This document shows positions 3,472 through 59,745 of a stretch of DNA of 64,000 nucleotides, piece by piece. Below the pieces are notes generated by a model that made no database searches, was not told the DNA's origin, and was given only the letters and a program-made list of their open reading frames with translations. The stretch is from Octopus vulgaris (Eukaryota), in the NCBI GenBank assembly GCA_951406725.2, contig OX597816.1, positions 131,688,001 to 131,752,000 of the forward strand, in the 5' to 3' direction. The first letter of the stretch is position 1. Every line of letters begins with the position of its first letter. The position numbers and the translations under genes were made by a program.

Positions 3472-4344
3472 TCTATATATATAAAACTGTAGTTGTGTGA
3501 GTGTCTGTCCCCTTCGATTTAGATTCCTAACTACTCCCACATTTTGCGGTACAGTTTAACCAAATTCGGGTAGCTTATAGTCGTGATTCATATCGAGCCC
3601 GTCTGAATATTAGCGCGCGTCTACGATGAGTCTACGATTTTAAAAATAATTTAACATCATTTTTTATTCCATTTTAATGCATAATTTTTCGTGTGTCGAT
3701 GGCGGCGGAGTTGGCGTCCACGCTCACACCTGCACCTGTGGGGAAGGGAGTGTAAGGAAATCAACGTCGTAATGCGTTGTCAAGGAGACCAGTGTTCTTT
3801 TAGAACAACGACTTCATGGCTTGAAGACACCAAAACAGAAATGGCTAAGAAAGCGTCTACGATGAGTCTACGATTTTAAAAATAATTTAACATCATTTTT
3901 TATTCCATTTTAATGCATAATTTTTCGTGTGTCGATGGCGGCGGAGTTGGCGTCCACGCTCACACCTGCACCTGTGGGGAAGGGAGTGTAAGGAAATCAA
4001 CGTCGTAATGCGTTGTCAAGGAGACCAGTGTTCTTTTAGAACAACGACTTCATGGCTTGAAGACACCAAAACAGAAATGGCTAAGAAAGCGTCTACATGA
4101 GTCTACGATTTAAAAAAAAATTTACCATCGTTTTTTTTCCATTTTAATGCATTTTTTCGCTATTATATAAGGGAAGTAACTCTCTAAAAATGTCTACGAT
4201 GAGTCAACGATTTTAAAAAAAATTTACCATCATATTTTTTCCATTTTTAATGCATTTTTTGCTATTTTTTGGCTATAACTCTCTAAAAATGCTTATATAG
4301 TTATTTCCCTTACAAACCCGAGCAACGCCGGGCGATACTGCTAG
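3472..4344 (+). mobile_element. non-autonomous Helitron with an internal 236-bp tandem duplication
   Basis: A|TCtatatatataaaa start; cccgagcaacgccggg hairpin and CTAG|T end; 3617-3852 repeated at 3853-4088. Confidence 0.88.
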
Positions 4345-18510: not shown

Positions 18511-19076
18511 CATATATATAAGTAATAATTTTAAATTTGGCAAGTCACCTAATGAGACACATCTGCACCAGTGTTGCACCACAACTGTTTGAATGAAACA
18601 CCGGTGCACGATGGGTCAAAACGATTGTGGCAATTAATAAAGAATCTTGTGAATTCCATTTTCTTTCTCTCTCTCTCATATTACACACACGCACGTGTGC
18701 ACACACACACACACAAACAGACAGACACACACACACAAACACACAGACACATACACACACACATGTATATCTATAGGCCATCATTTAGTTTTGATTGTCC
18801 TGGGTATAAGTTTAAACATACAAATCTTCATTGATTCACAATAGAGATTTGAGGTCCTTACTTCTCTATATATGATTGCACCTCCACTCATTCATTGCAC
18901 TCCTCTTCACCCATTACATCCCTCATTCCCCACTATCCAAAAGACTCTTTTCCTATGATGGGTGCAATGATATCATGCTGTGCAACAAGAATGTTGCAAG
19001 AAGTTTGAATTACATTTTTTATATGTATCATATCTATTCATCCAACCATACATGCAAACATACATACATACATACA

Positions 19077-19140
<64 letters not shown>

Positions 19141-19143
<3 letters not shown>

Positions 19144-19279
19144 AGTTGCAGCATGGAAGGTGTTTATAAGCCATTTAAAAACACACAAAAACCGTTAGAT
19201 TCACTTCAACATTTAAATTTAATTTGTCAAGGTATTTTTGTCGCTTTGAAATCGCAACCTCTTCAATGACAAAATTCCA
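19141..19279 (-). mobile_element. single arm of the Penelope-like family that forms the 22794-23060 palindrome
   Basis: cagttgcagcatggaaggtgtttataagccatttaa... aligns with 22794-22930; abuts (TA)n. Confidence 0.75.
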
Positions 19280-19283
19280 TATA

Positions 19284-19822
19284 CGAGGGTGAGTCAAAAA
19301 GTAATGCCATTTTGTTTAGGACAGATATAATTACCAACACAGGAACATATATCATACATCAAAATGAAGCTGGTCCCCTGTGGATCACATCCCTACTCCT
19401 CAACATAGTAATGGTTTCTCTCAATAGCAATGTTCCACCTTCGATTGAGAACATGTATCCCTGCCCCATAAAATTCTGTTCATTGTTCTATGAGCCACTT
19501 CTTCACTACAGTTTTCCCTTCCTCATCACTGGAATAATATTTGCCTCTCAAACCCTCTTTCATGGGGCCAAAGATGATAGTTTGAAGGTGAAAACTGTAG
19601 TGAAGAAATGGCTCAAATAACAGTCAACAGAATTTTACGGAGCAGGGATACATGCTCTCATTCGAAGGTGGAACATTGCTATTGAGAGAAATCGTGACTA
19701 TGTTGAGAAGTAGGGATGTGATCCACAGGGGACCAGCTTCATTTTGATGCATGATACATGTTCCCGTGTTGGTAATTATACCTGTCCTAAACAAAATGGC
19801 ATCACTTTTTGACCCACCCTTG
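19284..19822. mobile_element. fold-back mariner MITE made of two 3' ends
   Basis: TA TSD; ~240-bp inverted arms; each arm encodes VKTVVKKWL..STEFY.AGIHALIRRWNIAIERN.DYVEK*. Confidence 0.92.
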
Positions 19823-19940
19823 TATATATATATATATATATACACACTAATACATCTGTTTGTTGTCTACACCACCTGTCTTCGTCTTTTGTTGTTTTTT
19901 TTTGTGAATTCTCCATATATATATATATATATATATATAT

Positions 19941-20828
19941 TGATAAAACGGTAAGATAACAAAAGAAAGAAAGAGACCTCAATATTATGTAAATAGAGGA
20001 AATTTATCTATACAATATGTTACATTACTCGGTAGTCAAGATAAAACTCTGAGTTTCAGATGCCGAAGTGGAAATCCACAACACCATCTCTTCGGTTATC
20101 TGGCTATTTGAAAACGTTATGAAAAAATACCGTTAAAAATGAAGGGAAATTACTCTGTTATAACTCTGCTTTGCCTGCGTACTTATACATCGCTCGCATT
20201 TTTCGTCATAAAAATTATATAAAATACATAAAAATATATAAAAATATATAAAAAATATATAAAATCTTCTTGGGACATAACACAGAAAGCATGTTCTATC
20301 CGTTTTCTTTAGGGGACCAAAAACGTAACAGAAATTTAGTCACATGTGGGCATGATCCGAAAAGCTCTGTCCTTGTATTTAGACATGTGGTAGGGTCTAA
20401 GCTGCTTTTCCAGATAAGCCATCTCTGGAAAAGCAGCTTAGACCCTACCACATGTCTAAATACAAGGACAGAGCTTTTCGGATCATGCCCACATGTGACT
20501 AAATTTCTGTTACGTTTTTGGTCCCCTAAAGAAAACGGATAGAACATGCTTTCTGTGTTATGTCCCAAGAAGATTTTATATATTTTTTATATATTTTTAT
20601 ATATTTTTATGTATTTTATATAATTTTTATGACGAAAAATGCGGGCGATGTATAAGTACGCAGGCAAAGCAGAGTTATAACAGAGTAATTTCCCTTCATT
20701 TTTAACGGTATTTTTTCATAACGTTTTCAAATAGCCAGATAACCGAAGAGATGGTGTTGTGGATTTCCACTTCGGCATCTGAAACTCAGAGTTTTATCTT
20801 GACTACCGAGTAATGTAACATATTGTAT

Positions 20829-20833
<5 letters not shown>
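19941..20833. mobile_element. 5'-truncated Penelope-like element with inverted duplication (410-bp-arm palindrome) in (TA)n
   Basis: Arms 20005-20414 and 20424-20833, 9-nt loop, one mismatch seen (T20194/G20644); each arm encodes CLNTRTELFGSCPHVTKFLL...*, resembling the LNxRxELxxxCxHxxKF C-terminus of PLE GIY-YIG proteins. Confidence 0.8.
20732..20805 (+). ncRNA. type I hammerhead-ribozyme-like motif (variant core); mirrored on - strand at 20033-20106
   Basis: Stem I AGAUAA/UUAUCU, CCGAAGA, stem II GAUG..CAUC, U, GAAAC, near-palindromic stem III AAACUC-A-GAGUUU. Confidence 0.45.
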
Positions 20834-20873
<40 letters not shown>

Positions 20874-21621
20874 AATATATATGTTATGTATGTGTGTTAT
20901 ACATATATATATACATACTTATATACATACACACGCACACACAAGCACACACATACTCACACATATACACACATACATATATATATATATACACACACAC
21001 ATACATACACGTGTTCACATGCACACACACACACACACACTCACACATGTATAATGTTTTATTTGCTGAAACTAAATTCTATATCTTATTTTAAGCAAGG
21101 AAATTTATAGTACATTGTTCAAAGATAATTAAAATAAAAATTTCTATATAGGATATTTAAATTTTTTTCCTTTTCAACTACCCCCTGTTGACTTCTTCAA
21201 ATGTCATTACAGGTTTATTTAAACAGATACCATGTATTTTGTTACCGAAACTGTTGTTTTGAAAAGATAGAATATTCTTGAGAGCTTTTGCTTGGTGTTT
21301 ATTGTCCATTGTCATTGCCAAAGGAGCAGAAAGATTAAACAAATATCTCACAGCAACACAAGTTAAGCATTTATGCTATAGAAAGACTATGTCTTTATCT
21401 TCTTCATACAATAGTGTTCTTTATATATATACATGCATATAAACATACATGCTCAAACATATTTATATATGCATACACATCTTATATATATATGTTTTCA
21501 TATATATATATATATATATATACACATAATACATACGTATGAACATATGAATATTTGGGTAAGTATATATATACACACACATATATATACATATATACAT
21601 ATATATATACACACACACATA

Positions 21622-22020: not shown

Positions 22021-22036
22021 ATATATACATTGCATT

Positions 22037-22333
22037 AAGGATCGTGGGTAAGGCCAGAACAATGTGAAATAAATGCAAGGCAAAGCACAAGAAAACAAAT
22101 ATATGAATTAATGTAGACTTACCTTGCATTCAATATTTTGAGATTATAACCTTATTTTCCATAAATTAATGACTGTTGCTGCATGTCGGCAACATTCATT
22201 AATTTCTTGAAAATGGGATCATAACCCTGAAATATTGAATGCAATGTAAGTCTATATTAATTCATATATTTGTTTTTTTGTGATTTTCCTTGCATTTATT
22301 TTGCATTGTTCTGGCCTTACCCACAATTCTTTA
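22037..22333. repeat. diverged long palindrome (~145-bp arms), probably an older PLE fold-back
   Basis: gtgggtaaggccagaacaatg...caaatatatgaattaat...gttgc-loop-gcaac...attaattcatatatttg...cattgttctggccttacccac. Confidence 0.85.
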
Positions 22334-22399
22334 TATAATATAGTTTACACAGTGCTTAATGGTAATTACTCTATTATAATATAAATGTGTATATATATT

Positions 22400-22752: not shown

Positions 22753-22790
22753 ATCATGTGTGTGTATATGTATATATATATATATATATA

Positions 22791-23119
22791 AACCAATTGC
22801 AGCGTGGAAGGTGTTTATAAGCCATTTAAGAAACACACAAAAGCCGTTCGATTCACTCCAACATTTAAGTTTAATTTGTCAAAATATTTTCGTCGCTAAA
22901 ATCCGCGACCTGTTCACTGACAAAGTCCGTGCTGCAGTGAACAGGTCGCGGATTTTAGCGACGAAAATATTTTGACAAATTAAACTTAAATGTTGGAGTG
23001 AATCGAACGGCTTTTGTGTGTTTCTTAAATGGCTTATAAACACCTTCCATGCTGCAATTGTTTTCGTTTCAGCACACGATCTCAGATCAAATTACTTGCT
23101 ATGCGAGTACATCTCCGTA

Positions 23120-23120
<1 letters not shown>
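22791..23120. mobile_element. Penelope-like fold-back insertion (126-bp arms plus 60-bp extension) between (TA)n tracts
   Basis: Arms 22794-22919 and 22935-23060, 15-nt loop, one mismatch seen; hammerhead-like gtcgc..gcgac-gaaa-atatttt. Confidence 0.75.
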
Positions 23121-23157
<37 letters not shown>

Positions 23158-57130: not shown

Positions 57131-57305
57131 TAACCCTTCATCATATATTGACTATAGAAAATAGTCTAATATTAGGGCATATAAACCACCATAATGATAA
57201 AGAAATGGACATGTATGCCTATTTTTTTCCTTTACAGGTTTTATATACCCAAATATTAGACTAATTTTTATAGTCAATATATAGTGAAGGTTTGTAATTC
57301 TATTT
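57131..57305. repeat. diverged palindrome (left tip at 56701-56725, displaced by the SINE)
   Basis: ccttca..atatattgactata.aaaatagtctaatatt.ggg..tataaacc / ggtttt.atatacccaaatattagactaattttt.atagtcaatatat..tgaagg. Confidence 0.8.
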
Positions 57306-58830: not shown

Positions 58831-59745
58831 TTATAATAACTATATTTATATATAAATATATATGTTCCATTTAAAGCCACTAAACCTAAACAGTTGTTTA
58901 TAAAAAACTGAGTCAATTTTAATGAATAGATAATTTTAGTCAAGAAAATATATTTATAAATTTTTAAACAAACCTGAAGGTTGGAAATTACAGAGAAGAG
59001 CGACACAATATATTTATACAATGTATTTATTTACACATATAAATAAAAAGATCTATGTGTGTCGCTCTCCTCCGTAATGTTCAATTCCCAGTGGTTGGGC
59101 CCATCTTTTTTCTGTCAATTGTTTAGTTTTAGTCACTTTAAATAGGGCATATATTATAAATAATATATAATTATAGTTACCATTAAAAAGGACTTATGTG
59201 TGTAGCTCTTCTCTGTAATTTACAGCTTTCAGGTTTGTTTAGAAATTTAAAAAATATATATTCTTGACTAAAATTATCTATATATTAAAATTGGCTGAAA
59301 TTGATGGGCAAGCTATGTGGATGAAATGGGTGCATATGGAGCAATGGAAGCATTAACATCATGTTCAGTTCCCAGTGGTTAAGCCCATCTTTTTTCTGTC
59401 AGTTGTTTAGGTTTAGTTGCTTTAAACGAAGCATATAATGGCAATCAACATGATTGATTGCTAGCTACTAAAGCCTTCTTTTTTTATTCTCTCTCCGTTT
59501 ATTTTCTTGTGTTCCTTTCTGTTGAAGAGCGTAGGCTCAAAACGTAAAAGACTTTCTCACTTTCCCCGAGCATTAAACTAATGCACATGTTTGTTGCTTA
59601 CATGCCTGACTTTGTCTTTTGTTTTTTTTGGTACTATTCCAAACATATGTTATTATAAATAATATACAATTATAGTTATAATTTAAAAGGACCTATGTGT
59701 GTCACTCTTCTCATAATTTACAGCCTCAAGGTTTATTTATAAATA
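58830..59745. mobile_element. inverted plus tandem arrangement of one AT-rich repeat, PLE-like architecture
   Basis: 58835-59010 is inverted relative to 59105-59297; 59050-59180 recurs at 59360-59438 and 59645-59735. Confidence 0.6.
59438..59645 (+). mobile_element. PLE-like pLTR fragment with hammerhead-like motif
   Basis: ctgttga-a-gagc-gtag-gctc-aaaac-gta. Confidence 0.5.

Follow-up and report, generated by a model that had tools for sequence, protein, structure and literature searches.

Results

Architecture of the palindrome

The locus is a nearly perfect palindrome whose two 410-bp arms differ at a single pair (T20194/G20644, A/G in the sense orientation) and are separated by a 9-nt loop (20415-20423), which is coding sequence of the longer copy (Table 1). 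Pairing of the arms ends at 20004/20834 and leaves 64 nt unpaired, on the left side only; the last three nucleotides of the right arm (ATA) can be assigned either to the element or to the microsatellite, and the length of this tail is thus 64-67 nt. Both sides are bordered by (TA)n, as (AT)13 on the left and an (AT) run from position 20831 on the right. The arms, loop, mismatch, extension and flanks are as reported in the initial annotation, and the two microsatellite halves bear out its proposal that (TA)n was the insertion target.

In the window, that is the whole 64,000-nt stretch of DNA analysed, the palindrome is the longest and the most perfect of 3412 inverted pairs. The host DNA around it is AT-rich, microsatellite-rich and eukaryotic. 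A search of the window found no further copy of the arm, direct or inverted, and no partial tandem (direct pLTR) with a full-length copy, which is an optional trait in Penelope-like elements (PLEs). At the inversion junction, the match in register with the arms is AGA/TCT (20412-14 / 20424-26). The words agat (20412-15) and atct (20421-24), earlier proposed as junction microhomology, both exist, but they lie 2 nt off the register of the arms.

Table 1 Features of the palindromic locus (window coordinates).
Feature	Position	Strand	Basis
(AT)13, left half of the microsatellite target	19915..19940	.	sequence
One-sided 64-nt tail, 3' extension of the minus copy	19941..20004	-	arm pairing; related tails 62-67 nt
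Bulged hairpin opening the tail (4 bp, 2-nt 3' bulge, 4 bp, 5-nt loop)	19974..19999	-	predicted, -3.7 kcal/mol
Left arm, 410 bp, belonging to the longer (tailed) copy	20005..20414	-	inverted-pair analysis
Type I hammerhead motif, Hydra layout; U4C at 20094, predicted cleavage nucleotide 20045	20039..20101	-	
AT-rich 3' UTR, 194 nt, from stop codon to hammerhead	20102..20295	-	
RT-endonuclease ORF, final 42 codons and stop; carries the N and CxH conserved in Hydra GIY-YIG C-termini	20296..20424	-	translation, profile
Inversion junction, 9-nt loop closed by AGA/TCT	20412..20426	.	
Right arm, 410 bp, tail-less inverted copy; stops 31-34 nt past the hammerhead, at an internal TA-like site	20424..20833	+	
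Mirror copy of the hammerhead motif	20737..20799	+	
(TA)n, right half of the microsatellite target (end approximate)	20834..20871	.	

The protein remnant belongs to a Hydra-clade PLE

The minus copy encodes a 42-aa peptide (20424-20299) followed by a stop codon, as had been read before, and these last 42 codons are all that remains of the ORF, in agreement with the 5' truncation proposed earlier. The peptide has the C-terminal endonuclease end of the Hydra clade, with a conserved N and a CxH followed 15 residues later by the stop. A word-indexed protein search with the 42-mer gave one candidate and none at E<=0.1, while an exhaustive search gave seven matches at E<=0.001. Five of them (P0002-P0006) were multi-stretch chance matches to repetitive proteins and were dropped; the other two, P0007 and P0008, are GIY-YIG C-termini with borderline E values of 8-9e-4, P0008 aligning over 40 residues (48%). 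A search with P0008 retrieved three of 149 candidates, two of which are full RT-endonuclease proteins of 719 and 772 aa. These full-length relatives carry RWR/RWK, DKT/DKS, YRDD, a CxC-x4-6-C linker, CxxC and CxH; CxxC and a CxCX5C-type linker are seen in P0008-P0011. Section 11 of PMC8557442 defines the Hydra clade by those motifs, with CxxC ahead of the conserved E, within a single ORF that has RWK and DKT and no CCHH. In Pfam, the 42-aa peptide matched no family, P0008 matched GIY-YIG only below the cut-off (E 0.035), and P0009-P0011 gave nothing relevant and no RT match.

The alignment of P0009-P0011 was used as a query and led to two metagenome loci and 11 loci from MAG contigs. A profile was built from 12 distinct C-termini of the fetched loci, with P0001, P0007 and P0008 left out. 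Against 2126 segments of the window, the two arms rank at the top (E 1.9e-8 and 2.1e-8), and the next segment is at 0.026. No ORF with RT or upstream endonuclease sequence was found within the window. Two of three peptide motifs were absent from the supplement of PMC8557442. In the part of its File S7 available to us, Hydra-1_Obim from Octopus bimaculoides shares 19 of 36 residues with the peptide in an ungapped comparison by eye, and by this comparison it is the closest named family, a relative that belongs to another family.

We conclude that the palindrome almost certainly contains the last 484 nt of a Hydra-clade PLE, likely from an unnamed family of that clade and, to judge by the nearest named family, probably from an octopod. 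The identification as a PLE 3' end with an endonuclease C-terminus, made from the sequence before any search, is therefore upheld by the profile (E ~2e-8) and by the Hydra-type hammerhead, and can now be narrowed to the Hydra clade.

A hammerhead motif with an unusual core

The hammerhead-like motif noticed earlier in the UTR is recovered on both arms. It comprises a 6-bp stem I, the core, a 4-bp stem II base, an additional U ahead of GAA, and a 4-bp stem III that is palindromic and capped by a 1-nt loop, a layout that agrees with the Hydra rows in File S2 of PMC8557442. The descriptor, which was relaxed after inspection of the sequence to permit C at position 4, has two matches in the window, one per arm, and none in 100 dinucleotide shuffles. 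Both arms depart from the canonical CUGANGA core by U4C. Position 4 is U in all 44 distinct hammerhead contexts collected from 59 loci, and U4C is found in none of them; this change considerably lowers hammerhead activity in vitro, according to the available text of PMC3088659. The predicted active fold has an energy of -9.3 kcal/mol against -18.7 kcal/mol for the monomer minimum, and the folding energy of the region is no better than that of shuffles (z -1.05). Rfam gave no match at gathering score in the whole window; in 19000-21500 it gave 42 sub-threshold matches, nearly all of them miRNA models on hairpins or microsatellites, and no hammerhead family. An ORF start at the hammerhead ATG (stem II) was also considered and rejected, as it opens only 20 codons.

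We read U4C as a single change, either private or a variant of the family, which would weaken the claim of an active ribozyme and leave the clade placement unaffected. As homology the hammerhead is real; its cleavage is doubtful.

Ends of related copies and the origin of the tail

In related loci, tail-less copies meet (TA)n 26-57 nt past the hammerhead (11 copies) and tailed copies 110-113 nt past it (3 copies); the corresponding distances for the window arms are 31 nt (tail-less) and 98 nt (tailed). At locus L002, where a direct pLTR tandem is present, the sequence past the 5' pLTR runs on into the element body, which identifies the tail as the start of the next tandem unit. This is expected from work on PAc (PMC11167929, accessible part).

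Four head-to-head units with a one-sided tail were found in G001 contigs. They stem from three family queries on five genomes, short of a full survey, and the count leaves out inverted pairs of the same loci that lack a tail or a hammerhead. Tails measured in three of the four are 67, 65 and 62 nt long, and the spacers are of 5-7, 60, 177 and 523 nt. In three of the units (60, 177 and 523 nt) the spacer is owned by the tail-less arm, and only one shares the polarity of the window palindrome. Short loops are seen here (9 nt), in L006 (5-7 nt) and at 22920-22934 of the window (15 nt). Furthermore, L037 has at its truncation point a 17-nt fold-back with an 11-nt loop, as seen by eye. PMC8557442, as far as accessible, describes 5'-truncated inverted copies with a one-sided tail in (TA)n as the norm. 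As the layout recurs in related units and is described there as common, it is routine for PLEs.

Hydra PLEs that look intact, and contigs rich in (TA)n, occur in several bacterial MAGs (L003-L013, G001), which suggests that animal host DNA was binned there. Nesting of several Hydra families in one another's TA runs is seen in L006 and L011. Hammerhead repeats with neither a tail hairpin nor a nearby Hydra C-terminus occur at L006 7705-9144 and L002 2628-2988, and are possibly other PLE clades or retrozymes. A pattern search of viral contigs gave 27 matches, none of which was a relative.

A predicted bulged hairpin opens the tail

By energy alone the tail hairpin is weak, being no better than shuffles (z -0.39). 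A structure-only descriptor was applied to the 13 regions extending at least 75 nt past a hammerhead, and matched nine of them, against a mean of 0.8 (maximum 5) in 200 shuffles; among the nine, one is a false match in a TA run, two are from one family, and the first window match is an alternative hairpin that overlaps the conserved one. A pattern anchored in sequence and built from these matches gave 12 matches in 13 loci and a single one in the window, at this tail, against 0.225 per shuffled window. In a hand-anchored table of 11 hairpins (MAFFT misaligned their 5' strands), the bulge is TT in 10 and the third inner pair, which lies outside the requirement of the pattern, is paired in 10, with three pair types; the other columns are partly circular, as the pattern required the first two inner pairs. 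The hairpin is also visible by eye in four of the six Hydra consensi in the accessible part of File S7 of PMC8557442. It was not found described in the literature searched, a set outside which most subscription papers lie, including the original PLE hammerhead paper. A conserved hairpin with a 2-nt bulge, opening the Hydra tail, may be a new detail.

With more doubt than belief, we suggest that the start of the tail could be an RNA signal common to the whole Hydra clade: a TA-like run and, no more than a few bases after it, the hairpin with its 2-nt bulge on the 3' side and an upper stem that changes in sequence but keeps its pairing. This signal is what the RT-endonuclease would bind to fix two start or resolution points about 65 nt apart. 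If this were true, the tail signal, together with the occurrence of the tail on either the longer or the shorter arm, would make the question of PLE inverted repeats and tails testable via one hairpin. Another hairpin of this shape, with two 4-bp stems on either side of a TT bulge and a 9-nt loop, lies at 19983-20012 on the minus strand. It overlaps the short end and is mutually exclusive with the conserved tail hairpin; a two-state switch is possible.

Neighbourhood of the palindrome

The left flank (19842-19914) is the 3' end of an older repeat, with an 80% match at 59577-59629, which indicates that the PLE inserted into the (TA)n tail of that repeat. A second unit with the same layout and from an unrelated family is found at 22790-23122, with (TA)n at both ends, 130-bp arms with two mismatches, a 15-nt loop and a 58-nt one-sided extension that contains a small hairpin. 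A partial, 87% copy of this family (19140-19278) extends from a (TA)n run to a MITE-like element of 549 bp (19279-19827) with 238-bp arms and TA ends, the terminus of which resembles mariner repeats. Five short motifs from neighbouring elements, including the 22790-23122 family, had no match in the supplement of PMC8557442. Decayed palindromes of 80-320 bp (78-85% identity) are located at 22026-22342, 57132-57293 and 503-583. A 236-bp tandem unit is present in 2.3 copies at 3617-4159 (97%), with an inverted, partial copy (90%) 1.2 kb upstream, at 2074-2286.

Age and copy number

The single difference in 410 bp amounts to an arm divergence of 0.24% (95% interval 0.006-1.4%). If the host is an octopod, the octopus rate given in PMC13282606 turns this into an age of about 0.3 My (0.01-1.9), a figure that arm-to-arm conversion would make too young. 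The insertion is probably young, and the recent event proposed in the initial annotation is supported to that extent. The same source counts 31 recently active Penelope-like families in O. vulgaris, so that a young PLE is not surprising in octopus.

In a search of sequencing runs, one arm was represented at 0.79-0.98 of 42 sampled words in 20 of the 24 runs listed; the sampled words cover one arm, and the junction is outside their reach. The 20 runs come from 14 studies (13 without a possible source) and carry 11 organism labels, and two of them are of only 5-6 million letters. These matches, including those in the two tiny runs, suggest a multi-copy family. None of the listed runs that contain the arm is an RNA run. 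With positions 19941-20424 as the query, eleven runs under eight organism labels (C-J) have an equal word share of 0.86, which may reflect close relatives with a common multi-copy family, horizontal transfer or mislabelling. Recent horizontal spread as the cause of the near-identity of the family across the 11 organism labels is improbable.

Discussion

Formation of the palindrome

The locus combines a 484-base end of a Hydra PLE with a 410-base inverted copy of itself, head-to-head in (TA)n, and we favour, with some reserve, a single insertion event in which the truncated cDNA folded back, paired with itself over about three bases and served as its own primer. The endonuclease of the element would nick (TA)n; the target is observed, and the nick would follow the behaviour of the clade. 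Reverse transcription would begin at the outer end of the tail and stall 42 codons into the ORF, at the truncation point that is observed. The 3' end of the cDNA, TCT, could then pair with the AGA located 9 nt back and extend along itself, provided that the Glu codon lost upstream was GAG (3-nt match); any other codon would call for a 2-nt slip from agat/atct. Finally, the second arm would be resolved at the TA-like site of the element, 31-34 nt past the hammerhead, where the arm is seen to end, and joined to the target, giving the one-sided tail.

Self-priming is the somewhat likelier route at this particular junction. The tailed copy includes the loop as coding sequence, in keeping with a tail-primed cDNA that was truncated at an Arg codon and folded back, and PMC3846280 reads such junction palindromes as self-priming. 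Moreover, the 17-nt fold-back at the truncation point in L037 indicates that self-priming does occur. Because the spacer lies on the tail-less arm in three of the four related units, however, the simple scheme of a tail-primed cDNA that folds back is not general: tail-primed self-copying cannot yield a spacer on the tail-less arm, which needs either twin priming or a longer hairpin that the endonuclease resolves. The self-priming proposed in the initial annotation is plausible, in that it fits the short loop here and agrees with that published reading, but those three units have the opposite polarity.

Twin priming, in which both target strands are nicked, one cDNA starts at the outer tail end and the other at the inner TA-like site, and the two are joined by a 1-3-nt match, is the less likely route at this locus but a serious rival. 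It is favoured by the longer tail-less arm in three of the four related units and by the purified PAc protein, which in PMC11167929 cuts both strands, extends them from two sites on either side of the tail and has a predicted dimeric form. The A/G difference between the arms could be a template difference, and the junction letters are identical to those under self-priming, the microhomology being of 1-3 nt depending on the lost upstream codon. Two independent truncations would rarely fall within 12 nt of each other, yet short loops are found here, in L006 and at 22790-23122; twin priming accounts for cDNA ends within about 12 nt if both were copied from one broken RNA and ran to its 5' end. 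The genuine micro fold-back in L037 also argues against it.

A single-arm PLE fragment might instead have inserted first and been duplicated in inverted orientation later, through a fold-back in replication or repair that had nothing to do with transposition. Microsatellite flanks are generally fragile and several unrelated palindromes lie within the window, but the second arm stops exactly at the short end typical of the family, no flanking DNA is duplicated and the layout recurs in unrelated Hydra families, which makes this course very improbable. That the inverted arm is a sequencing or assembly chimera of a single-arm copy is scarcely credible: inverted PLE structures are known to trouble assemblies (PMC8557442), but in a chimera the tail and left flank would be mirrored too, whereas here the mirrored sequence ends at a biologically typical point and the right flank differs. 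The TA context, and the MITE-like element with symmetrical 238-bp arms only 110 nt away, recall a DNA transposon of the MITE or foldback type, inserted at TA and bounded by long terminal inverted repeats; the 64-nt asymmetry of the ends, the remnant of a PLE endonuclease ORF, the hammerhead and the clade-typical tail leave that origin a negligible chance. The product has no transposase coding capacity and is a dead-end by-product.

Comparison with known systems

The palindrome shares with the Hydra clade of C-terminal EN+ PLEs (Craig et al. 2021, PMC8557442) the C-terminal endonuclease end with N and CxH, the short 3' UTR, the (TA)n target, a hammerhead in which GAA is preceded by an extra U and the 4-bp stem III is palindromic, and a short end about 30 nt past the hammerhead; that paper notes a 5'-truncated inverted copy for Penelope-13_HM. 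It differs from the clade in its U4C core and in retaining only the last 42 codons. Its tail of 64 nt is longer than the 30-40 nt usually quoted and compares with 62-67 nt in the other Hydra units.

Head-to-head inverted truncated copies are also common to D. virilis Penelope, A. vaga Pen2-Pen6 and anole PAc, according to the available portions of PMC3846280 and PMC11167929. With the Penelope/Poseidon pLTR units, as described in the text at hand, the locus has in common a junction palindrome, a tail at one end and an AT-rich target, but it lacks the full ORF that those units hold between the repeats. In PAc the ORF starts within the hammerhead, whereas Hydra ORFs, as in L002, begin past the tail and within the element body.

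Section 15 of PMC8557442 names the origin of inverted repeats and one-sided tails in PLEs as an open question, and this locus is useful for it as a clean junction. The tail hairpin and the two polarities of tail and spacer are concrete targets for an in vitro PLE assay. Furthermore, if such palindromes were read through in introns, they would supply 400-bp dsRNA for editing or silencing.

Animal non-LTR retrozymes, as far as the accessible text of 10.64898/2026.07.22.740005 describes them, are likewise short, non-coding, PLE-derived units with a type I hammerhead; they form tandem head-to-tail arrays, whereas the palindrome is inverted, single in the window and still holds an ORF remnant. The locus itself is ordinary, a by-product of insertion that is probably young, and it leaves the known picture of PLEs unchanged.
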